From Nitrospinaceae bacterium (GTDB taxonomy: Bacteria > Nitrospinota > Nitrospinia > Nitrospinales > Nitrospinaceae): 64,000 bases of DNA. The stretch's first letter is position 1, and every line of letters starts with the position of its first letter. Below the pieces are notes generated by a model that did no database searches, was not told the DNA's origin, and worked only from the letters and a program-made list of their open reading frames with translations. Below, piece by piece: positions 32,996 through 44,199 of this stretch. The position numbers and the translations under genes were made by a program. Location: assembly GCA_965223665.1 (NCBI GenBank), contig OZ245011.1, positions 4,000,001 to 4,064,000 of the forward strand. The letters run 5' to 3'.

Positions 32996-33011
32996 TTATA
33001 AAAGTTTATTA

Positions 33012-33728
33012 ATGACTGAAAAATATCGAATTTTACTGGTTGAAGATGAAAAAAATCTTGCGAAGGGATTGACTTTTAATTTGCAACGGGAAGGTTATGA
33101 AGTTTCGGTTGCTGAAGATGGCGCTCGAGCTTTAGAGTTTTTGGAAGAGAGTAATTTTGACATGATGATTTTAGATTTAATGCTCCCCAAGGTAAGCGGC
33201 ATGGAAGTAATTAAAGATATCAGAAAAAACAATTCCCGATTTCCAATTCTAATGTTAACGGCAAAATCTAATGATGAGGACAGAACCCAAGGTTTAGAGG
33301 CAGGTGCTGATGACTATTTGACGAAGCCATTTCATTTACCGGAATTGCTTCTAAGAATAAAAGGAATCCTCAGGAGAAAAGAATGGTATCAGGAGCCCAT
33401 TACGAATAAAGAAAAATTTCGCTTTGGAGATTGTTGGATTGATTTTGAAACAGGAAAAGCAAAGGGTTGTGATAGTGAGTTTTTTTTGACGTCCAAAGAA
33501 GAAATGGTAATGAATTTATTGATATCGAATCGAGGAAAGGTTGTCACTCGGGAAGACCTTTTAGAAAAGGTGTGGGGGTATAGCCCTGATATGGAAACTC
33601 GGACAGTTGATAATTTTATAGCCCGTTTGAGAAAATATTTTGAAAGAAAGCCGCAAAAACCCAAGTATATTTTAACCTTACGAGAAAAGGGGTATCAATT
33701 TGTAGACCCAGATAACAAGATTAAATAA
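33012..33728 (+). CDS. OmpR-family response regulator
   Basis: LLVEDE, LDLMLP, GADDYLTKPF, winged helix TRTVDNFIARLRK. Confidence 0.95.
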   Translation: MTEKYRILLVEDEKNLAKGLTFNLQREGYEVSVAEDGARALEFLEESNFDMMILDLMLPKVSGMEVIKDIRKNNSRFPILMLTAKSNDEDRTQGLEAGADDYLTKPFHLPELLLRIKGILRRKEWYQEPITNKEKFRFGDCWIDFETGKAKGCDSEFFLTSKEEMVMNLLISNRGKVVTREDLLEKVWGYSPDMETRTVDNFIARLRKYFERKPQKPKYILTLREKGYQFVDPDNKIK

Positions 33729-33835
33729 TAATGAGGAGAAATAATTTTATTAATTGCTAGAAAAATCCGAGTCGTTTGAAATATTCTGATCTGCAAGTTT
33801 TTATTCGGATTTTAATACAGGAGCAAGTGTATCGA

Positions 33836-34045
33836 ATGGAACAAAAAATTGAAAAGCTAATTGTTGCTTTAATGGTTTTAATAGATAAAAATGGTGGCGA
33901 GTATAAACTAGATGCAAAAGTATATAAAGAAATGTTTGCTAAAAGACATAAGAAAGGCATCCATGTTCAGGAAATTGGTGATGAGGCCATTGTTCTGAAA
34001 TTAGGTGATATGACTATGAGTCCTGACGATGCGATGATGAATTAA
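33836..34045 (+). CDS. Small hypothetical protein
   Basis: ATG after CAGGAG; 69 aa; ends 7 nt before gdhA. Confidence 0.6.
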   Translation: MEQKIEKLIVALMVLIDKNGGEYKLDAKVYKEMFAKRHKKGIHVQEIGDEAIVLKLGDMTMSPDDAMMN

Positions 34046-34052
34046 TTTTTAA

Positions 34053-35429
34053 ATGGAGCTAAGAGTTTTGAATACATCCAAAGTCCAACAAAACCAAATT
34101 GACTTAAGTGACTTTATGGAGGGCTTGATCCGTCGAAATCCAGGAGAGCAGGAATTTCACCAAGCGGTGCATGAAGTAGCAAAAAGTGTAGTCCCCTTTA
34201 TCAATGAAAATCCTAAATATATACGCTCACGTATTTTAGAAAGAATGACTGAGCCGGATCGCCTGATAATTTTTCGTGTGTGCTGGGAAGATGATGAAGG
34301 AAATATTCGTGTGAATCGTGGATATCGTGTTCAGTTTAATAATGCTATTGGTCCCTATAAAGGAGGATTAAGGTTTCATCCCTCGGTCAATTTAAGTATC
34401 CTAAAATTTTTAGGGTTTGAACAAACTTTTAAGAATAGCCTAACCACATTGCCAATGGGTGCGGGGAAGGGAGGAGCAGACTTTAATCCAAAAGGAAAAT
34501 CGGAAAGAGAAGTTATGCGGTTCTGCCAAGCTTACATGACAGAACTCAGTAAATATATAGGTGAAAACATTGATGTTCCTGCAGGAGACATTGGGGTGGG
34601 TACGCGGGAAATTAGTTTTATGTTTGGACAATATAAACATTTGTGTAGTGAGTTTATTGGTGTGTTAACTGGCAAAGCATTGGAATTTGGCGGAAGCCAT
34701 ATTCGAAAAGAAGCAACGGGTTATGGTTGTGCCTATTTTATGGAAGAAATGTTGAAAAGAAAAGGTGATTCTGTTGAAGGCAAATCATGTGTGATCTCTG
34801 GTTCAGGTAATGTGGCTATGTACACGGCGGAGAAACTTTTGAGGCTTGGAGCCAAAGTAATTACAATGTCCGATTCTTCTGGCTTTGTTTATGATGCGGA
34901 TGGGCTTAATGAAGAAAAATTAGCCTTCATTATCGAATTAAAAACTTTTCGACGAGGTCGAATTAAAGAATATGCAGAAAAATTTAAATGCGATTATTAT
35001 CCTGATCATGAGCCCTGGGGTGTAGCTTGTGATCTAGCTTTTCCATGTGCAACACAAAATGAAATTACGGTTCAAAAAGCAAAAGCGTTAATAAAGGGGG
35101 GCTGTAAGGCTGTTGCTGAGGGGGCAAATATGCCAACAGAAAATGATGCCATCCAAATTTTCCAGGACGCCAAAATCCTTTTTGCCCCAGGTAAAGCCTC
35201 TAACGCAGGAGGGGTCGCTGTTTCAGGTTTAGAAATGACGCAAAATAGTATTCGCATGGCATGGACTGAGGAAGAATTGGACAAGCGCCTTAGAGAAATC
35301 ATTCAAAAAATTCACCAACAGTGCGTAAATTTTGGGACCATAGGTGATTTTGTGAACTATGTGGATGGCGCGAACTTAGCCGGTTTTAAAAAAGTTGCAG
35401 ATGCCATGCTTGCTTATGGAGTTATTTAA
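34053..35429 (+). CDS. gdhA: NADP-specific glutamate dehydrogenase
   Basis: GPYKGGLRFHPSV, GKGGADF, DVPAGDIGVG, EATGYG, SGSGNVA, EGANMP. Confidence 0.96.
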   Translation: MELRVLNTSKVQQNQIDLSDFMEGLIRRNPGEQEFHQAVHEVAKSVVPFINENPKYIRSRILERMTEPDRLIIFRVCWEDDEGNIRVNRGYRVQFNNAIGPYKGGLRFHPSVNLSILKFLGFEQTFKNSLTTLPMGAGKGGADFNPKGKSEREVMRFCQAYMTELSKYIGENIDVPAGDIGVGTREISFMFGQYKHLCSEFIGVLTGKALEFGGSHIRKEATGYGCAYFMEEMLKRKGDSVEGKSCVISGSGNVAMYTAEKLLRLGAKVITMSDSSGFVYDADGLNEEKLAFIIELKTFRRGRIKEYAEKFKCDYYPDHEPWGVACDLAFPCATQNEITVQKAKALIKGGCKAVAEGANMPTENDAIQIFQDAKILFAPGKASNAGGVAVSGLEMTQNSIRMAWTEEELDKRLREIIQKIHQQCVNFGTIGDFVNYVDGANLAGFKKVADAMLAYGVI

Positions 35430-35456
35430 TTTTACAATAGCTTCATTTGCTCGCCA

Positions 35457-36845
35457 ATGAACTTTAAATCTGTCCTTATTTTTATATACATTTTATTTTC
35501 GGCTCCTCTGTCTGCCTTTGGGAATGATTTTCCAAAGTTTAATCAATCGCGATATTTAGAAGATTATTCCTACCTAAAAGATCCTTCTCGGCGAACTCAG
35601 TTTTATGATCCTATTAAATTCATACCATTGAATGAAGAGGGAGATATTTTTATCTCCTTTGGCGGTGAAACAAGACAGCACTATGAAAATATAAGAAATG
35701 AAAATTGGGGAGCCATCCCAAGAGATAACAATGGGTGGTATTTGCAAAGATACTTGTTCCACAGCGATTTACATATTGGAAAACAGTTTAGAGGATTTTT
35801 CCAAATACAGGCTGGAACTGAGTCGGGGCGTCGAGGTGGACCGCGGGGTGTGGATGAAGACCGTATGGATATTCATCAATTGTTTGTGGATTGGGTCATT
35901 AAATTTCAGGAAAAAATAACTTTAAGAATAGGGCGACAGGAAATAATATTCGGTGCTAGAAGATTTTTAAACTATAGAGAAAGACCTAACCTTAGATTGA
36001 GTCACGATGCGATCCAATTATTTTGGAATCCGGGTAATCTAAATGTTACGGGTTTTTTAGGTAGGCCCGTTCGAATAAATCGACAATTTTTTGATAATAG
36101 TTCTACCAATGCATTCACATTTTGGGGGATTTATACTGTCGTTGCCGTTTCCTCAACCTTTCCACAAAATGTTGACTTTTATTATATAGGATTGAATAGA
36201 GAACAAGCCGTTTTTGATCAAGGAAGGGCAAATGAACTTCGACAAACAATAGGTACTCGGATTTGGGGTCGCTGGGGCTCGTGGGATTATGATTTTGAAT
36301 TAGTGTATCAATTTGGATCCTTTGGCAATGGGAATATTAGTGCCTGGGCCGTGGTTTCGGATACGGGTTATACTCTTCAATTGGAGGGCGTTTCCAAAAT
36401 AAGATTTAGTTTGCGAGCGGACGCATATAGCGGTGATGACGATCCGAACGATGCTGACCTAAATGCATTTAATCCGTTTTTTCCAAAGGGAAAACATATT
36501 AGCCAATTATCCGCGGCAGGATTGATCAATCAGTATAATCTGCACCCGCGGACAACTGTTGTTTTTAATCAGACTTGGTCTGCAACGGCAAGTGTATTAT
36601 TTATTTGGAGACAAAATACGCGTGACGGATTGTATTCTATTGCAAATGGGTTATTGCGAACAGGTCAATTAAGTAGATCAAGTTTTGTGGGAACGCAACA
36701 TGAAGTTGAAGTGAAGTGGACTATTAATCGATATTTAGATATTAAGGGAATTTTTAATTTTTTTGATGCTAGTTCTTTTTTAAAGGAAACCCCACCAGGA
36801 AACGATATTACTTATTTGGGAACCATGTTGACTTTCCGTTTTTAA
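35457..36845 (+). CDS. Alginate export (AlgE-like) outer-membrane beta-barrel
   Basis: Signal peptide, EDYSYL, RIGRQE..FG, SGDDDP..FNP.FPKG, C-terminal F. Confidence 0.85.
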   Translation: MNFKSVLIFIYILFSAPLSAFGNDFPKFNQSRYLEDYSYLKDPSRRTQFYDPIKFIPLNEEGDIFISFGGETRQHYENIRNENWGAIPRDNNGWYLQRYLFHSDLHIGKQFRGFFQIQAGTESGRRGGPRGVDEDRMDIHQLFVDWVIKFQEKITLRIGRQEIIFGARRFLNYRERPNLRLSHDAIQLFWNPGNLNVTGFLGRPVRINRQFFDNSSTNAFTFWGIYTVVAVSSTFPQNVDFYYIGLNREQAVFDQGRANELRQTIGTRIWGRWGSWDYDFELVYQFGSFGNGNISAWAVVSDTGYTLQLEGVSKIRFSLRADAYSGDDDPNDADLNAFNPFFPKGKHISQLSAAGLINQYNLHPRTTVVFNQTWSATASVLFIWRQNTRDGLYSIANGLLRTGQLSRSSFVGTQHEVEVKWTINRYLDIKGIFNFFDASSFLKETPPGNDITYLGTMLTFRF

Positions 36846-36881
36846 AACTAAATCTCGGAATGTATTTCAGGTAGAATTTAT

Positions 36882-37226
36882 TTAACCTTTTCTTTCATTT
36901 CCTTTAAATAAAATTATTTTAACTTTTTCTTCAGTAATTAAACCTTCTTGAATAATATCTTCCAGTTTGGGTTTCAACTGATCAATTTTTTCTTTTGTGT
37001 CTGCTACTTCCACCACGATTGGAAGATCGGTCGATAGCCGCAAAATTGATGTGGTGTGATAATGGCTGCTTTTTCCAAAGCCATCAATGCCCCTTAAAAC
37101 AGTGGCCCCTGCTAATCCCTCTTTCTTGAAAAACTCCATTAAAAATTTATAAAGATGTTTGCCTTCATGCATGGCTGATTCACCAATAAATATTCTTAAC
37201 AATATCGCCTCAGATTCCTTTTTCAT
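36882..37226 (-). CDS. DUF190 (PII-like) protein
   Basis: LRIFIGE, AGATVLRGIDGFG, LSTDLPIVVE. ATG follows GAGG. Confidence 0.9.
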   Translation of the reverse strand: MKKESEAILLRIFIGESAMHEGKHLYKFLMEFFKKEGLAGATVLRGIDGFGKSSHYHTTSILRLSTDLPIVVEVADTKEKIDQLKPKLEDIIQEGLITEEKVKIILFKGNERKG

Positions 37227-37236
37227 GTCAATAACC

Positions 37237-37608
37237 TCAAGCTGAAAGAGCAATGATTTTTCCAAAATAAATGGCTAATAGAGTCAGTAAAATGGACCCT
37301 ATAATATTAATTCCAAATAAAAATAATTCTTGTTGTTCAAAAAGTTTGAAGGATTCGTAACTAAAGGTAGACATTGTAGTGAAGGATCCTAATACACCGA
37401 TTGTGATAAAAATTCGAGTTTCCTCATTAAACAATCCTTTGAATTCTGAAAGATACATAACTATGCTTAATAGCAGACTTCCAATGAAATTAACCCCTAA
37501 AGTTCCTAAGGGAAATGTGAGAAATCCACTTTGGATCCATCCGCTTAAATAATACCGCATTATTGCACCGAGAAAGCCACCTGTGCCCACCAGGACCCAA
37601 GGAATCAT
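37237..37608 (-). CDS. crcB: Fluoride efflux channel Fluc/CrcB
   Basis: GGFLGA..RY, PLGTL.VN..GS, G.LGSFTTMSTF. Confidence 0.95.
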   Translation of the reverse strand: MIPWVLVGTGGFLGAIMRYYLSGWIQSGFLTFPLGTLGVNFIGSLLLSIVMYLSEFKGLFNEETRIFITIGVLGSFTTMSTFSYESFKLFEQQELFLFGINIIGSILLTLLAIYFGKIIALSA

Positions 37609-37670
37609 TGTTTGCCTCCTGAGGTTGAATGTTTAATCTTAGAAATAAAATGAAGTTGAGTTAAAATATT

Positions 37671-38636
37671 TTAAGAAAAAATTTGTGTTCCTTTTTTTCC
37701 TTCAATAGCTTCGAAAAGATGATCTAAATGCGCAATAATGGCACGTTTTCCCCCGTTTCTCAAAAATTCAAGTGCCGCTTGTACTTTCGGTTTCATGCTT
37801 CCTTCCGAAAAATGTCCTTCTTCAAGCCACTGGGCTATTTCTTTTGTAGTCGCTTTCAAAATAGGTTTTTTGTGTGGAGAATGAAAATCCAAATATGCGA
37901 ACTCAACCTGGGTCAAAATGACGAGATATTCAATTCCTATTGTATTGGCTAAAAGTGCGCTTGTTAAATCTTTATCTATAACGGCCTCTACTCCTTCAAG
38001 AGTTCCATTTTCATTTCTAATGACGGGGATTCCACCACCACCAGCGCCTATAACTATAAAGCCCTTTTTCAGTAAATGAGTGAAAATTTCTTTTTCTATT
38101 ATTTCAAGAGGTTTGGGAGAGGGGACTACTCTGCGAAAGCCCCTTCCTGAATCTTCTTTTATAATCCAACCTCTATCCTGGGCCAGTTGGTCTGCTTCTC
38201 TCTTAGAATAAAACACACCGATTGGTTTAGAGGGATTTTGAAAGGCTGGATCGTTAGCATCTACCCTGACCTGTGTGATGACTGAAAAAGATCGTTTATT
38301 GATTCCATTTTGTAGACAGGCATTGTCAAAAACATTTTGTAAAATGTACCCAATTCTTCCCTGACTGTCTGCGACGCAAATATCTAATGTAATCTTGCGG
38401 GGGAATTCATTGGCAGTTAATTCCTGTTGAAGAAATATTTGTCCAACTTGAGGACCATTGCCATGAGTTAGAACAATTTTAGAATAGTTACTTTTAATTA
38501 AAGGGATAATTTGCTCAAAGGACTTTTGAGCAATTAAAAACTCTTCTTTTTGATGGGCAGGAGAATGTCCTGGGACGTTTAAAGCGTTCCCCCCAAAAGC
38601 AATCAGGAGGCTTGGTTTATTTGATTGAGAGATCAA
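37671..38636 (-). CDS. arcC: Carbamate kinase
   Basis: GGNAL, THGNGPQVG, PSKPIG, EDSGRGFRRVVPSP, GGGGIPV, EAVIDKD, GSMKPK. Confidence 0.95.
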   Translation of the reverse strand: MISQSNKPSLLIAFGGNALNVPGHSPAHQKEEFLIAQKSFEQIIPLIKSNYSKIVLTHGNGPQVGQIFLQQELTANEFPRKITLDICVADSQGRIGYILQNVFDNACLQNGINKRSFSVITQVRVDANDPAFQNPSKPIGVFYSKREADQLAQDRGWIIKEDSGRGFRRVVPSPKPLEIIEKEIFTHLLKKGFIVIGAGGGGIPVIRNENGTLEGVEAVIDKDLTSALLANTIGIEYLVILTQVEFAYLDFHSPHKKPILKATTKEIAQWLEEGHFSEGSMKPKVQAALEFLRNGGKRAIIAHLDHLFEAIEGKKGTQIFS

Positions 38637-38645
38637 AATAAAAAA

Positions 38646-39971
38646 CTAATTTAAAGAGTTTAAAAATTTTGTTAAAACAGTTTCCAAATTTGGGGTTCCT
38701 ATTTCTTGTAATTCATAATGGACACGTAAAGAGGGCTGGTTGATTTTTATGATTCGCGATAAATCAATGGGTGTTGCAATTAATACCAGTTCACAGTCTG
38801 TTGCGTTAATAGTTCCTTCTAGATCTTTAATCTGTTCTTCACTATAACCCATGGCGGGGACCAAGCCACTAATATGTGGGTACTTTTCAAAAGTAGATTT
38901 GATTGATTTAAGAGCCACCGGTTTTGGATCTATTATTTCTTTAGCTCCAAATTTTTGAGCGGCTATAATTCCTGCTCCAAATTTCATTTCTCCATGAGTC
39001 AAAGTTGGCCCGTCCTCAATGACTAACACCCGCTTGTTTTTTATCTGATCAGAATTCTCTGTATAAATTGGTGAAGTGGCTTCAATTACTATTGCCCCCG
39101 GATTGTTTTGGTTTATAGAATTTTTTACTGTTTGAATATCTTGATTTTTAGCAGTATCCATTTTATTTATAATAATGACATCGGCGCGGTTTAAGTTGAT
39201 TTCACCCGGGAAGTAATTTAATTCATGTCCTGGTCGAAGAGGATCTGTGACAACTATTTCTAAATCTGATTGATAAAAAGGGAAATCATTATTTCCCCCG
39301 TCCCATAGAATTATATCTGCCTCGCTTTCTGCTTCTTTTAAAATGGCTCCATAATCTACACCTGCATAAACAACTCCCTTTAAATTAATATAGGGTTCAT
39401 ATTCTTCCATTTCTTCAATGGTACATTCGAACTTTTTGAAATCATCTAAGGAAGCAAACCTTTGGGTAGCCTGTTTTTGTAAATTTCCGTAAGGCATAGC
39501 ATGACGAATGGCTATAACATTATGCCCCCAGTTTTTCAGGATCTTCATTATTTTTCTAGAGGTTTGGGACTTCCCGCATCCAGTGCGGGTTGCACAAACC
39601 GATATGACAGGTTTTTTGGAACGCAGCATGGTAGTTTTTGGTCCCATTAACCAGAAATCGGTTCCCAATCCCATTACAAATGAGGCTTTATTCATCAAAC
39701 TCTTATAAGAAATATCGCTGTATGCAAATACAACTTTATCTACCTGGTATTTTTTTATGAGGTTTGATAAATCCGTTTCAAAGTGAATAGGTATTCCATT
39801 TGGATAATTCTCACCCGCTAAACTGGGTGGATATATTTTTTCTTCTATTCCGGGAATTTGTGCTGCTGTAAAGGCCACCACTTCATAGTTTGAATTGTCT
39901 CTGAAAAAGACATTGAAATTATGGAAGTCGCGCCCGGCAGCACCCATAATAATTACTTTGGTTGGTGACAT
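38646..39971 (-). CDS. arcE: Cyclic 2,3-diphosphoglycerate synthetase-like P-loop NTPase; probable arginine synthetase (ArcE)
   Basis: MGAAGRDFHNFN..YEVVAFTA.QIP, P-loop RTGCGKS, WDGGNND, EDGPTLTHG, PAMGYS; adjacent to carbamate kinase. Confidence 0.8.
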   Translation of the reverse strand: MSPTKVIIMGAAGRDFHNFNVFFRDNSNYEVVAFTAAQIPGIEEKIYPPSLAGENYPNGIPIHFETDLSNLIKKYQVDKVVFAYSDISYKSLMNKASFVMGLGTDFWLMGPKTTMLRSKKPVISVCATRTGCGKSQTSRKIMKILKNWGHNVIAIRHAMPYGNLQKQATQRFASLDDFKKFECTIEEMEEYEPYINLKGVVYAGVDYGAILKEAESEADIILWDGGNNDFPFYQSDLEIVVTDPLRPGHELNYFPGEINLNRADVIIINKMDTAKNQDIQTVKNSINQNNPGAIVIEATSPIYTENSDQIKNKRVLVIEDGPTLTHGEMKFGAGIIAAQKFGAKEIIDPKPVALKSIKSTFEKYPHISGLVPAMGYSEEQIKDLEGTINATDCELVLIATPIDLSRIIKINQPSLRVHYELQEIGTPNLETVLTKFLNSLN

Positions 39972-40081
39972 TTTGAGGGTACTTTAATTTTATTTTAAAA
40001 TTTAATTTTGATGGTTTCTAAAACAATTAATTTTGTCATTAATTTATAATAGAAGGAAAAAGAATGGAAGAAGAAATGAAA

Positions 40082-40888
40082 CTAGTTCAATTGATAGTTG
40101 TGAAAGGTGAATGTGTATTTGGAAAGTGGATTTCCATTTTTTTCAAGGGATAAAGTTATTTTGTTAGGAAGCCAGTAGTTATTAATTTTTTTATAATAGT
40201 ATTCAGCTTTTTCTTTAAACCTGTTTTTTTTGTAACTATATTTTGAGATCGACTCTGAAACTAGCCATTTGCCTTCTTTTTCTAAATATCGAAATTGACT
40301 TTTTACTTCAGAAGGGCCCTGTTTGGGTTTGAGTTGCATTTTTTCTACATTCCATTTTCTTTTATCAACCATTAAGTCATATCTTTGTATGGGAGTTTCA
40401 GAACTATTTGAAACAAAACGAATCAGAATTAAATTGTTTTTTTCCCGATTGGTTTTCTCAATATATTGATCCAAAGTTTGTTTAAGAGTACGCGGGAATA
40501 GTAATTCTTTAAACTGATAAAAAAGTTGAACCACTTCAAATTCTCTTTCGGAAGAATTATTGAATGGCGTCTTTAATATTTCAAAATCACGCAAATCTTT
40601 GGGATTATTGTTATACCATTTGAATTTGACTTTTGGGTTTTGCAAAAAATGATTAGAACCTTTTTCCAGATCCATTTGATCCCAATGAATTTCCACTGTG
40701 AATTTTTTAAGCCCCATATTCTGAGGGTAGTAATAATGATTGTCTAATTTTTGAATGAGACCTTGGGAGGAGTTTGAAAAGGCAGGACTATGAAATAGAA
40801 AGATGGTGAAAGTAAAAATACAAACTAAATGGAAAGCTCTAAACGAAAAACCGAGGAAATCAGAAATAGTAAATCGGGTTTTTCGCAT
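40082..40888 (-). CDS. Hypothetical exported protein (beta-rich, possibly LolA-like fold)
   Basis: Signal-like N-terminus; last gene of a tightly coupled operon. Confidence 0.65.
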   Translation of the reverse strand: MRKTRFTISDFLGFSFRAFHLVCIFTFTIFLFHSPAFSNSSQGLIQKLDNHYYYPQNMGLKKFTVEIHWDQMDLEKGSNHFLQNPKVKFKWYNNNPKDLRDFEILKTPFNNSSEREFEVVQLFYQFKELLFPRTLKQTLDQYIEKTNREKNNLILIRFVSNSSETPIQRYDLMVDKRKWNVEKMQLKPKQGPSEVKSQFRYLEKEGKWLVSESISKYSYKKNRFKEKAEYYYKKINNYWLPNKITLSLEKNGNPLSKYTFTFHNYQLN

Positions 40889-40891
40889 AAT

Positions 40892-41467
40892 CTAGGGCAA
40901 AGCTTTTGCCTGTGTTTCAATGGTAGATAAGACCTCATAAAATTTATCGTTATCCCATTGTCTTGCACCGGAAATAAATCCGCGCAGCTTTCCCTGGCTA
41001 TCTATTAGGTAACTGGTGGGTAAACCCAAAATAAAATAGGAGCGCCTGACTTTTTGGTCGGGGTCTAAAAGGATCGGAAATGTTAAATTATACTCTTTAA
41101 CATATTTCTGCACCTTCTCCTGATTCCCGCGATCAATAGAAATAGCAACTACTTGAATGCCATGTTCTTTTGCAGTTTTATGGAGGCGCTCCATGGAGGG
41201 TAGTTCTTCTTTGCAAGCGCCGCACCAGGTGGCCCAAAAGTTTAAAAGTACAGGTTTCCCCTTAAATTTAGAAAGAGACACGTTAGTTCCGTTTAAGTCT
41301 TTTAATGTAAACTTAGGCGCATCCTTAATTCTTTGAGGTTTTGCAATTCCAAAACTTTCATAAGGATCTGATGAAAAGCTTATCTTTTCCTTTCCCATTC
41401 CCATTAAAAATAAAGAGAAACAAAATACTACTGATAATGTAAAAGTTTTTCGCATAATTTTCCTCAT
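40892..41467 (-). CDS. TlpA/ResA-family thiol-disulfide oxidoreductase
   Basis: LLNFWATWCGACKEELP, GLPTSYLID. Confidence 0.92.
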   Translation of the reverse strand: MRKIMRKTFTLSVVFCFSLFLMGMGKEKISFSSDPYESFGIAKPQRIKDAPKFTLKDLNGTNVSLSKFKGKPVLLNFWATWCGACKEELPSMERLHKTAKEHGIQVVAISIDRGNQEKVQKYVKEYNLTFPILLDPDQKVRRSYFILGLPTSYLIDSQGKLRGFISGARQWDNDKFYEVLSTIETQAKALP

Positions 41468-41757
41468 CTTGCATTCCTATGTAAGTAACTTTGGATCATT
41501 TGCCTTTCTTGTTGTGAAAAAGAAATTCCACTGTTTTTCATATGACCTGCCATAATATTAAGGTAATGGTCCCACTCTGCTGCTGAATGCCTTGAAGGAT
41601 GTGGCCAACTATGACAAACAGTACATTTATTGATAAACATTTTTGCCTCAGCAGATTCAGGTTCTGGTACCCGGGGAGCGCTGGCACAAGCCAGCATCCC
41701 ACCAGATACCAAAGCAAGAACAATAAATTTAAAAACCCATAAAGCTTGTCTCCTCAT
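41464..41757 (-). CDS. Monoheme c-type cytochrome lipoprotein
   Basis: Lipobox MLAC, CTVCH heme motif, distal His/Met candidates. Confidence 0.8.
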   Translation of the reverse strand: MRRQALWVFKFIVLALVSGGMLACASAPRVPEPESAEAKMFINKCTVCHSWPHPSRHSAAEWDHYLNIMAGHMKNSGISFSQQERQMIQSYLHRNAR

Positions 41758-41758
41758 A

Positions 41759-42961
41759 CTAGAAACCTAACTCCTTGGGAGGCTTGGTTCCTGTATATCG
41801 ACGACTCTTTTTAGTCGGTATTTCAATATACCAAGAGAGCATCAATCGATAATCTTCCTTCAACTGAGGTCCGCGTATGTTTTGATAAACCGGAAACGAT
41901 CCATTAAACTCAATGATGTGCAAAGGAAAGGGCTGAAATTGCAAGCCAGTTGTAAAGTTTACTTTAGTTCCGCCATAATTATCAGGGTCGTTCAGGGGCG
42001 AAATGAATGGTAAAGCTGGGTTCCCACCGGCATGACCATTACCATTAACTCTTTGAGAAATGGGTTCATTACTATAAGTATCTTCATAATAATAATTCAA
42101 CTGAAAATGAATGACCGATTTTTCGTGGAACTGATACATTGTGTATAGATCCGCACGAACCTCATCACCCTGTTGGTAGCCCTGGCTGTTATCATAGAAC
42201 CGGCCAATGTACCAAACATTTGCCCCATACCAGAGTGGATCAGCGGATCCTTGATATGCAGCACCAATAATAGGATCAACGGTTCCACTTCCTAACTGCA
42301 TTTTAAAAGGTAGAATGGTCCCATTTTGTCCCGGAACAGGGTTATTGGTAAATTCTTTGTTAATAGATCCCGTTGGAATTGACATTCCAAATAATAGAGA
42401 TAGCTGTTGAGTCGGTGCCAGATTGTCATTTTTCAATACGCGGTATTTTCCTATCAATCTGGTATCTCCAAGCCCGGCGGATGTCATGGTAAACCCGTTA
42501 CGTCCAGATGCGGCAACTAACCCTGGGAAAAAAGTCATCTGCATACGATTAGCTTTGAAACTGGTCATTACCATTACGGCAAAGTCGTCTGTAAAGGAAT
42601 AAGCGCCACCAAACATGGTCATGAACATATCCATAGATACGGGTATGGCAGGAAATGTCGCTCCGCCAGCACTGGGTGGACCCACTAACGCACCTTGATT
42701 GAGAGTACGCTGCCCCTCTTGAAGAGGTCCCATTTGCATATACATTTGGCTGATTTTAAAACGAAATTCATGAGTTTCCGGAATACCTCCACCAAAAACG
42801 TTTAAAGGCATATTTCCGCCACAGTGCGCACAGCATAATCCGATATAGGCCGTCGCTTTAGTAACTCCCAATACCAGTAAAAAAGCGATGGTGATTGACA
42901 GGCGAACCAAAGGGTTTACTTTGGATCTAAAAAAATCTTTTTTGAATTGGAACAAGTGCAT
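41759..42961 (-). CDS. Outer-membrane beta-barrel transporter (MetA-phenol-like) with Cys/His/Met-rich segments
   Basis: Signal peptide, CCAHCGGNMP, MYMQM and MDMFMTM, GLGDTRL, MQLGSGTVDP. Confidence 0.75.
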   Translation of the reverse strand: MHLFQFKKDFFRSKVNPLVRLSITIAFLLVLGVTKATAYIGLCCAHCGGNMPLNVFGGGIPETHEFRFKISQMYMQMGPLQEGQRTLNQGALVGPPSAGGATFPAIPVSMDMFMTMFGGAYSFTDDFAVMVMTSFKANRMQMTFFPGLVAASGRNGFTMTSAGLGDTRLIGKYRVLKNDNLAPTQQLSLLFGMSIPTGSINKEFTNNPVPGQNGTILPFKMQLGSGTVDPIIGAAYQGSADPLWYGANVWYIGRFYDNSQGYQQGDEVRADLYTMYQFHEKSVIHFQLNYYYEDTYSNEPISQRVNGNGHAGGNPALPFISPLNDPDNYGGTKVNFTTGLQFQPFPLHIIEFNGSFPVYQNIRGPQLKEDYRLMLSWYIEIPTKKSRRYTGTKPPKELGF

Positions 42962-43091
42962 TTCTCTCTACTCCCCTGGTAAGAACTAAAAACCTTAACT
43001 AATTAAAGAAAACTATAACGGTCTCCGAGCAGAATTTTCCCTTTTGGTTTAAAAAGCAGGAAAACTCGATCAGAGAAAAAATAAAATGGAG

Positions 43092-43502
43092 TTAAAGAGA
43101 TTGGGGGGGTGGGTCTAGTGAAAGATCCATATGATATTTGTATATCATGTTAACGTGAGGAATTTTTGGAGTGACCATTGTTTGGAGGAGATCCTCACGG
43201 GATTCGTGGATATAATTTGGGGTGATACTGGGTCCTTTGTTAACGTTCCCATTAGTGGAGTTGGGTCCGCAATCATTTAGCCATTGTTGGGCTTTGGACC
43301 GTTCCACATTTTTATGAGGGCAATACAAATGATTTTTCTTGTGGTGATTCAGTAAACAATGTAAAGATTTTTTCCCCTTATGAATTTCAAAGGGGGAGGA
43401 CTTTGAGGTGTGCCCTGTATGCGCCCACACTGATCCCGACCCTAAAAAAAAGATACTTAGGAAAAAGAAAAACCCTGAAATTCTCAAAACTGATTTAGCC
43501 AC
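43092..43502 (-). CDS. Exported His/Cys-rich small protein ending in a polyproline motif (CutF/CruR/DUF2946-like)
   Basis: Signal peptide (VWA-H), HCLLNHHKKNHLYCPH, C-terminal DPPPQSL. Confidence 0.7.
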   Translation of the reverse strand: MAKSVLRISGFFFFLSIFFLGSGSVWAHTGHTSKSSPFEIHKGKKSLHCLLNHHKKNHLYCPHKNVERSKAQQWLNDCGPNSTNGNVNKGPSITPNYIHESREDLLQTMVTPKIPHVNMIYKYHMDLSLDPPPQSL

Positions 43503-43584
43503 CGAATTTAAACCTAAATATAGATGTTTTTCGCTATATTACTTAATTTAAAGGTGGTCTGTCAAGGTTGCCAAATTAAACTGC

Positions 43585-44199
43585 TTAATTTTTGGGACTA
43601 TAGAGCTGGGCGAGCCAATAGGCCATAGATCGGGTAAACCGATGAAATAGGTTTTCGTTACCTTTAACGGGTTGAACGTGAATGAATCTCATCCCTGCCT
43701 TTATTGCTCCTCCATCCGTGAGGTAATTGTCGCCAATCATGCAGACTTCACTGGGATCTTCCAGGTTTAAATAATCTTCCATAGCTTTTTTAAATCCAAG
43801 GGGATCGGGTTTGGGGGGAACATTTGTCACTATGGGCACTTCCGGAATTTGCTGAAATCTTTCTTCGGATGCGTTAGTAAAAATCGCGACTTTGAATCCC
43901 TGGTCAATCATATCTTGAATTTGTTGAATTACGGGTTCTGCAAAACTTTCAGCGTGGTGAGGTCCCAGTGTTCCGTCCGCGTCCAGTAATATACCTTTAA
44001 TTCCTAAATTTTTTAATTCCTCAAGAGAAATATCCGTAAACTGTTTTACAAATTTTATTGTTTTCAAATATGCAGGAAAAAAGGGAAGGGTGAGAAACCG
44101 TTTGATTTTTTCCCATGTGACGCCCTCTCGATTTTTTGGGTATGAAGTAGCCATGATTTTATAAAGTTTTAAATCCTCTTGAACTAAATTATAAATCAA
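43585..44199 (-). CDS. YqeG-family HAD IIIA phosphatase
   Basis: LDADGTL, FTN, PKP, MIGDNYLTD. Confidence 0.85.
   Translation of the reverse strand: MIYNLVQEDLKLYKIMATSYPKNREGVTWEKIKRFLTLPFFPAYLKTIKFVKQFTDISLEELKNLGIKGILLDADGTLGPHHAESFAEPVIQQIQDMIDQGFKVAIFTNASEERFQQIPEVPIVTNVPPKPDPLGFKKAMEDYLNLEDPSEVCMIGDNYLTDGGAIKAGMRFIHVQPVKGNENLFHRFTRSMAYWLAQLYSPKN

Follow-up and report, generated by a model that had tools for sequence, protein, structure and literature searches.

What would an arginine synthetase gene and a carbamate kinase gene be doing beside a fluoride channel gene in the genome of a nitrite oxidiser? This question is raised by a 64,000-nucleotide stretch from a Nitrospinaceae bacterium (contig OZ245011.1, positions 4,000,001 to 4,064,000; hereafter, the window), where four open reading frames, arcE, arcC, crcB and a DUF190 gene, all lie on the minus strand and are separated by 9, 62 and 10 nt, the same arrangement that a first-pass annotation made from the sequence alone had described. 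The genome holding the window, labelled G000 here, is 4.35 Mb in size and 98.6% complete. Our analysis compared sequences and assigned them to families, and followed which genes the genomes contain, which of them occur together and in what order. The first gene is identified by its sequence as ArcE and not as CpgS, and we think it fairly likely that arcE-arcC serves arginine catabolism for maintenance ATP within a wider substrate-level-phosphorylation kit, with crcB-DUF190 as a separate unit.

Identity of the ArcE protein

The arcE gene (38646..39971) encodes a predicted arginine synthetase (ATP-forming arginine deiminase) of 441 aa with the P-loop TGCGKS at residues 130-135. No family model was available for ArcE, and the reference was reached through the cloning primers for TK2200, the ArcE of Thermococcus kodakarensis, in the supplement of PMC11032458. 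An exact primer scan of the genome contigs gave no match; a degenerate scan led to Thermococcales loci, from which the primer-bearing genes were reached. The exact TK2200 forward primer was found in 3 of 97 Thermococcaceae genomes, and two Thermococcaceae loci (L108 and L110, 99% identical to each other) carried both primers exactly. The window protein showed 63.9% identity to L108 over 432 aa in an ungapped alignment (597 bits, E 0.0) and 63.7% to L110. The ArcE tree of PMC11032458 admitted sequences with E < 1e-100 and a length > 380 aa; with its full-length similarity, the window protein qualifies as ArcE on that basis. The start GAAGRDFHNFN is common to the window protein and the TK2200-primer-bearing gene, and the family motifs are intact: the P-loop, GAAGRDFHNFN, WDGGNND and EDGPTLTHG. 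When the protein was aligned with 162 further ArcE rows, 168 columns showed the L108 residue with a conservation of 95% or more; the window protein kept 163 of these, and CpgS 41.

A true CpgS control (L101), which matches PDB 9SXB at E 4e-274 and adjoins a 2-phosphoglycerate kinase gene, was used for comparison. The window protein showed 23-24% identity to true CpgS over stretches of 75-107 residues only, against the 64% full-length identity to the TK2200-primer gene. CpgS queries and two 2-phosphoglycerate kinase queries, one of them confirmed by NF003259, gave no tblastn match in G000 at E 0.01. The first-pass annotation had named grouping with CpgS, together with a 2-phosphoglycerate kinase, as one outcome that would speak against ArcE; in a quick tree of 46 rows, the CpgS pair was instead separated from ArcE at support 100.

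Family scans of the window protein gave nothing over cut-off, only a sub-threshold CbiA-type P-loop match. The AlphaFold model (pLDDT 92) found its best fold matches in cyclic 2,3-diphosphoglycerate synthetase (cDPGS) and in LpxK, including 4EHY, the LpxK structure used for TK2200 in PMC11032458. Databases name the relatives of this protein 'predicted GTPase' or cDPGS, the automated mislabelling that had been anticipated, and the close relatives carry the taxon names Nitrospinaceae or Nitrospinae. That the gene encodes cDPGS or a generic GTPase, as these labels and the best PDB sequence and fold matches would have it, is very improbable indeed: the PDB matches are weak (E 5e-5 in sequence, against E 4e-274 for the control, and a TM score of about 0.47 in fold), and the CpgS and 2-phosphoglycerate kinase comparison already largely rules it out at the sequence level. 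Taken by itself, the gene is a sound re-annotation of a common database mislabel.

Carbamate kinase and the arginine genes of the host

The arcC gene (37671..38636) encodes a carbamate kinase of 321 aa with a TTG start. The protein scored over the cut-off of NF009007 (334 bits) and 5 bits under that of TIGR00746 (353 versus 358 bits). It matched PDB 1E19 at E 3e-83, with the active-site motifs GGNAL, HGNGPQVG, NPSKPIG, VIDKD and GSMKPK aligned.

G000 encodes a twin-arginine NxrA (1710 bits against PDB 7B04), in agreement with the chemolithoautotroph-type host that had been proposed; together with the names of the close ArcE relatives, this protein points to a nitrite-oxidising member of the Nitrospinota. 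ArgG, ArgH, CarB, PyrB and a single ArgF, the ornithine transcarbamylase (OTC), were all found over cut-off in G000, and the lone argF lies 1.6 Mb away from the window. No full-length ArcA was found in G000, where the sole PF02274 match covers 125 residues and is of the DDAH type. The gene set of the arginine synthetase pathway, carbamate kinase and OTC without ArcA, is therefore present. The first-pass annotation had offered two uses for it, ATP and ammonia from Arg or Arg synthesis without ArgG and ArgH. The catabolic form is the best reading; the replacement of ArgG and ArgH is unsupported, since both genes are present along with those for CarB and ArgF, and argG was found in 38 of the 40 genomes with arcE described below.

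Some further genes of arginine metabolism were observed in G000. A stand-alone arginine-dihydrolase-like gene (L002:145-951; G000:C1:2457551-2458357) lies directly upstream of the only argF; its product scored 333 bits against an NF052232 cut-off of 450, and the gene was found in 46 of 120 phylum genomes and in 18 of the 20 other genomes of the family. A complementary distribution of this gene and ArcE was considered and rejected (20/40 versus 26/80). A DDAH-like amidinotransferase is encoded at L004:1282-2043.

Distribution of the arcE-arcC pair and its gene neighbourhood

Among 120 phylum genomes, ArcE was found in 40, in four of them as fragments at contig ends. A strong carbamate kinase match (141 bits or more; matches of 36 bits or less, to other amino-acid kinases, were dropped) was present in 37 of these 40 but in only 2 of the 80 others, and arcC directly followed arcE in 29 of 30 loci. 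The pairing of arcE with carbamate kinase thus extends well beyond the window, and arcE-arcC is, on this pattern of conservation, the real unit. NxrA, at 89% identity or more and with four distant matches dropped, was found in 21 of the 40 arcE genomes; it is often lost in binning (PMC10839748).

Of the 41 relatives that have arcE or a strong arcC, 39 were compared over flanks of 5.7-20 kb. What comes directly after arcC is, in 14 of these loci, a group 3b [NiFe] hydrogenase operon beginning with its hydB on the arcC side; 6 loci have fhs (formate-tetrahydrofolate ligase) there, and another 6 have crcB. Counted over a distance of 10 kb, the neighbours include hydrogenase genes (16 loci), hyp genes (12), porCD-A-B together with the gene of an ADP-forming acyl-CoA ligase (10), nfnAB-like genes (9), fhs (9) and tdh (4). 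At least one gene of this kit was present in 24 of the 39 loci. The NfnAB label here is our reading of NF004862 and TIGR01316 matches. Genome-wide, the same genes were more frequent with arcE than without it: hydrogenase in 31/40 versus 18/80 (three matches of 37-38% dropped), the 2-oxoacid:ferredoxin oxidoreductase (POR) of the island type in 28/40 versus 14/80, and Fhs in 34/40 versus 23/80. The control DUF190 was also commoner in arcE genomes (30/40 versus 29/80), which indicates that lineage and completeness inflate such counts. Within one genus (g18), hydrogenase (9/10), Fhs (9/10) and POR (8/10) accompanied arcE, as against 1 of the 13 genomes lacking it (G059, where arcC is kept); the controls did not follow this pattern (DUF190, 6/10 versus 9/13; NxrA, 5/10 versus 11/13). 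The comparative link to fermentation genes is real as gene order, and the order of arcC with hydrogenase and Fhs genes suggests an amino-acid fermentation or survival kit.

The whole kit is also encoded in G000, with its parts scattered. One run (L115:7313-13633; G000:C1:1941312-1947632) holds co-oriented porCD-porA-porB, an ADP-forming acyl-CoA ligase gene and a dehydrogenase gene of the Glu/Leu/Phe/Val type, and a polar amino-acid binding protein gene lies 1.3 kb beyond it on the opposite strand. In another (L116:8386-15935; G000:C1:2937385-2944934), a group 3b hydrogenase operon and nfnAB-like genes are arranged head-to-head; G000 has its hyp genes elsewhere, and its HypF is only 40% identical to island-type HypF. 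In a relative (G061), arcE-arcC lies exactly between an nfnAB-like block and a group 3b hydrogenase block. Because most of the kit proteins score under equivalog cut-offs, their substrates are read from family resemblance.

Two genomes, G059 (L096) and G080 (L084), keep arcC with no detectable arcE; G059 retains the remaining island, and in G080 arcC is head-to-head with crcB-DUF190. The ArcE copies of G068 (L034) and G006 (L083) fall outside the main phylum branch, and the arcC of G068 is only 43% identical, so these copies look separately acquired. In genus g2 of the window's family (L023 and L029), the ArcE copies cluster with those of other families and are located within the island. In a second tree, 13 of the 46 rows were left out (2 CpgS, 4 near-identical Thermococcales, 3 long branches and 4 of genus g18). 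Family monophyly of ArcE was rejected (p-AU 0.005, under a simple model and for a group chosen after the first tree), suggesting transfer within the order. A recent foreign origin of the window's arcE-arcC was rejected, its GC content and third-position GC content being the same as those of the neighbours.

Proposed role of the pair and competing explanations

According to PMC11032458, TK2200 converts Arg, ADP and Pi to citrulline, NH3 and ATP with a Keq of about 10 that favours Arg breakdown, is sigmoidal in ADP, and yields two ATP per arginine together with OTC and carbamate kinase; the same paper expects ArcE to be catabolic where ArgG, ArgH, CarB and ArgF are present. In the host of the window, ArcE would catalyse this conversion of Arg, ADP and Pi, the lone ArgF would run backwards, pulled by ArcC, to turn citrulline into ornithine and carbamoyl phosphate, and ArcC would use the carbamoyl phosphate for a second ATP, giving 2 ATP per arginine in total. 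We infer this activity and direction, including the reverse use of ArgF, along with the conditions of use and the source of the arginine. The route is redox-neutral and needs neither O2 nor nitrite, and it would therefore most likely supply maintenance ATP once respiration stops, as when nitrite respiration fails. Protein turnover is a possible arginine source, and G000 also has genes for a permease and a binding protein of the polar amino-acid ABC type. The wider kit would comprise an amino-acid dehydrogenase, POR, an ADP-forming acyl-CoA ligase, Tdh/Kbl, Fhs, NfnAB and the group 3b hydrogenase, with NfnAB and the hydrogenase as its electron outlet.

Several observations weigh against this proposal. 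The window ArcE departs from the family at 5 of the 168 conserved columns, including His to Tyr at residue 89, a change seen in 5 other rows too. The arginine-dihydrolase-like gene beside argF would provide a competing, ATP-free arginine route, and no dedicated catabolic OTC or ArcD is linked to the module. On the supply side, an APC-type permease was not found with PF13520, the ABC binding proteins of G000 score below the Lys/Arg/Orn cut-off, and cyanophycin synthetase was not found, the only matches being short and Mur-ligase-like (best 114 bits against a cut-off of 850). In G000 itself, arcE-arcC adjoins no gene of the kit; hydrogenase is missing from 9 of the 40 arcE genomes and present in 18 of the 80 without arcE, including G018 of the same genus. 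Kin do not count as independent cases, and genes of one island may move as a group although they do not work as one. Finally, three genomes of another family also have crcB no more than 4 kb from arcE or arcC, a point to which we return below.

The hydrogenase neighbourhood could also mean that the ArcE route supplies carbamoyl phosphate for hydrogenase maturation. In T. kodakarensis, which lacks carbamoyl-phosphate synthetase (CPS), the arginine synthetase pathway has been tied to hydrogenase maturation, ArcE and ArcB providing carbamoyl phosphate for that purpose (PMC13260591); 12 of the 39 loci have hypA/F/D no farther than 10 kb from arcC, and G000 has HypF. We nevertheless regard this explanation as unlikely: G000 has a full CarB, missing in T. 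kodakarensis, the fixed partner of arcE is arcC, a consumer of carbamoyl phosphate, and not argF, and 9 of the 40 arcE genomes are without hydrogenase.

Nitrogen scavenging, in which GdhA would assimilate the ammonia from arginine with ATP as a side product, is somewhat less plausible still. The pathway chemistry would release two NH3 per arginine, organic nitrogen use has been reported for Nitrospinota, and gdhA (34053..35429, plus strand), an NADP-glutamate dehydrogenase gene over the NF006929 cut-off, is 1.5 kb from the DUF190 gene; the first-pass annotation had suggested this link. The gene is on the opposite strand and does not travel with arcE-arcC, however: it is kept in 4 of 5 arc-less relatives, and of the 6 relatives that carry the four-gene run, 4 lack it in the locus retrieved, so that it is near the module but unlinked by synteny. 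Moreover, the arginine-dihydrolase-like gene by argF, common in the family, would do the same job irreversibly. Two further genes of the glutamate-dehydrogenase family were found (L121:5888-7159 and L122:4326-5747), one of them 2.2 kb from argH.

Just as improbable is an anabolic use, in which ArcC would make carbamoyl phosphate and ArcE would fix free ammonia onto citrulline, yielding cheaper Arg at high ammonium. The ArcE reaction can run both ways, in vitro as well as in vivo (PMC11032458), and the ATP saving might benefit an energy-limited autotroph. This is countered by the retention of argG in nearly all arcE genomes and of argH and carB in G000, by a Ks for NH3 of 3.7 mM (PMC11032458 supplement), by the inability of carbamate kinase to replace CPS in T. 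kodakarensis (PMC13260591), and by the neighbouring genes, which are catabolic and include none of arg biosynthesis.

The catabolic reading can be extended, more tentatively, to the phylum. It is possible, at somewhat less than even chances, that a Thermococcus-like amino-acid fermentation kit, patchy in distribution and partly mobile, is present in many nitrite-oxidising Nitrospinota, which would use it in anoxia for ATP and release ammonia. ArcE-ArcC would serve for arginine, dehydrogenase, POR and ADP-forming acyl-CoA ligase for 2-oxoacids, and Tdh/Kbl and Fhs for threonine; the electron sink, evolving H2 or reducing sulfur, would be NfnAB together with the group 3b hydrogenase. At 20 C, the evolution of H2 from NAD(P)H is inefficient if H2 does not stay low (PMC7078480), and sulfur reduction or a partner may therefore be needed. 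If the reading is true, a hydrogenase usually read as an H2-uptake enzyme would work fermentatively, 'obligate' lithotrophs would ammonify, and the persistence of major marine nitrite oxidisers in anoxic water and sediment would be explained.

The crcB-DUF190 pair and the structure of the locus

The crcB gene (37237..37608) encodes a Fluc fluoride channel of 123 aa (TIGR00494, 87.9, over cut-off) and is a neighbour outside the arginine module. Its standing partner, the DUF190 gene (36882..37226), encodes 114 aa from the ATG at 37226 (PF02641, E 2.5e-36), and the 10-nt gap between the two depends on this start. Ribosome sites are visible before crcB (AGGAGG) and before DUF190 (GAGGT), and none is clear before arcE or arcC. 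The 62-nt arcC-crcB spacer (37609..37670) is the crcB leader and contains the AGGAGG site. At the two fluoride-coordinating positions the window channel conforms to Fluc, with Met at the position of F80 in Fluc-Ec2 and a TTMSTF that matches the F80M structure 6B2A. Met was found at this position in all 36 readable phylum CrcB matches (9 unread, some genomes counted twice), and Phe in 4 Thermococcales matches. The F80M change stays active in Fluc-Ec2 (PMC5636608), and the window channel would thus appear to be a natural, phylum-wide version of this active mutant.

The first-pass annotation had left the linkage to Fluc and DUF190 unexplained, with the idea that phosphoryl-transfer chemistry is protected from fluoride. 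A single four-gene operon in which Fluc/DUF190 shields Mg-dependent phosphoryl transfer from fluoride would agree with the short gaps on one strand, with the conservation of the run in 7 genomes of 3 genera, and with 3 more genomes, of another family, in which no more than 4 kb separates crcB from arcE or arcC, a number above that expected from random placement. We give it little credence, since the pair is independent and stays put where arcE-arcC is absent. DUF190 was found in 59 of the 120 phylum genomes, 27 of which are without both arcE and arcC. The gene directly upstream of DUF190 was crcB in 29 of the 30 loci from the phylum and in 4 of the 5 from Thermococcales. In the window's family, the five most complete of the 12 arcE-less genomes all had crcB-DUF190 in the same slot with nothing replacing arcE-arcC. 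The pair also keeps its slot in G019, where the arc genes are 2.4 Mb away, and in a Thermococcaceae genome (G146) it sits 1.5 Mb from arcE. The leader is retained as well. The 3' part of the 62-nt spacer aligns with the crcB leader of arc-less G018, and this leader and the AT-rich region 5' of arcE (39972..40081, 110 nt), which is the left edge of the indel relative to G018, together align with a single 210-nt spacer of that genome. In genus g5, the crcB leader is common to arc-less G036 and three carriers (77% mean column identity); in genus g3, a TGnTAnAAT motif, read by eye, occurs at the same place in 4 of 4 genomes, two with arc genes and two without. An Rfam scan of 33000-44000 revealed no fluoride riboswitch or other RNA, apart from one chance snoRNA match.

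Among the 32 genomes with both units, 7 had the four-gene run, 3 (G038, G048 and G080) had the units within 4 kb in another arrangement, 3 had both on one contig but at a great distance, and in 19 the two units were on different contigs. The run-bearing ArcE copies form one tree branch (support 91/82, unstarred), so the seven runs count as one event. The run therefore appears to be one inherited arrangement from which arcE-arcC has repeatedly been lost or gained as a block, and the fluoride-gene linkage is probably inherited gene order; the module would have come to lie in the upstream gap of crcB-DUF190 in one lineage. The proximity in G038, G048 and G080 is hard to put down to chance alone and may go back to an ancient common neighbourhood; it leaves the fluoride idea a small probability.

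The gene order is not an assembly artefact, because contigs from 2 of 4 public runs (one study, possibly the source sample) cover 36936-41500 with zero differing letters. Promoter-like sites in the region were at chance level (14 found versus 12.3 +/- 3.3 expected), and the terminator scan gave the same picture. Downstream, the gene of an alginate-export-family porin (35457-36845) is convergent with DUF190 and accompanies the crcB-DUF190 pair. The stretch upstream of arcE (40082-43502) holds a run conserved across the family, which comprises a 136-aa open reading frame, a MetA-pathway-like 400-aa protein, a small CxxCH protein, a TlpA-like thioredoxin and a 268-aa open reading frame.

Comparison with known systems

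The ArcE enzyme pair was already known, and Nitronauta, Nitrospira and Nitrosococcus had been named as ArcE holders (PMC11032458); new here is the gene-order link of arcE-arcC to hydrogenase and fermentation genes in nitrite oxidisers. In the available parts of four Nitrospinota genome papers (PMC3578206, PMC8026999, PMC10839748 and PMC13768755), neither arginine catabolism nor carbamate kinase appears, no fermentative growth or survival is demonstrated for the phylum, and the hydrogenase is treated as unresolved or as an H2-uptake enzyme. Glycogen fermentation with polysulfide or protons was listed as one option in PMC3578206, where the role of the group 3b hydrogenase of Nitrospina was called unclear in 2013; it was still without physiological evidence in 2024 (PMC10839748). 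A search joining 'nitrite-oxidizing' and 'arginine synthetase', with most subscription papers outside its reach, found nothing, and one joining 'Nitrospina' and 'carbamate kinase' gave few matches, one of them on purine breakdown in the part available; nothing relevant was found on DUF190 together with crcB. The coupling of arcE-arcC to hydrogenase genes in many genomes gives a testable direction for the group 3b hydrogenase. The comparative context, which hints at an anaerobic survival mode, outweighs the re-annotation in importance.

Among the closest known systems is the ArcE-ArcB-ArcC pathway of T. kodakarensis (PMC11032458, PMC13260591), with which the window shares an enzyme 64% identical over its full length, carbamate kinase with one OTC, the lack of ArcA and the LpxK-like fold match. 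In contrast, the host here is a putative nitrite oxidiser and not a peptide-fermenting archaeon, arcE and arcC are adjacent with argF far away, and G000 keeps ArgG, ArgH and CPS and would therefore not depend on ArcE for carbamoyl phosphate. The arginine deiminase pathway (ArcA-ArcB-ArcC-ArcD) likewise combines OTC and carbamate kinase to draw anaerobic ATP from arginine; here there is no full-length ArcA and no linked ArcD, and ATP would be conserved already in the first step, with a predicted yield of 2 ATP per Arg instead of 1. CpgS (PDB 8ORK, 8ORU and 9SXB) is a distant homologue of the same P-loop fold family that differs by its low identity over short stretches and by its 2-phosphoglycerate kinase partner, not found in G000. 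The Fluc with DUF190 conforms to known Fluc proteins in family scores and motifs, and the pair is conserved from this phylum to Thermococcales; the differences lie in the natural Met at the F80 position and the lack of a riboswitch. In Thermococcus, amino acids are catabolised in three steps by an amino-acid dehydrogenase, a 2-oxoacid:ferredoxin oxidoreductase and an NDP-forming acyl-CoA synthetase (PMC11032458). The same three enzyme types occur in one run in G000 and beside arcE in 10 of the 39 relatives' loci, with the group 3b hydrogenase and NfnAB, although the Nitrospinota enzymes score under equivalog cut-offs and their substrates are putative.

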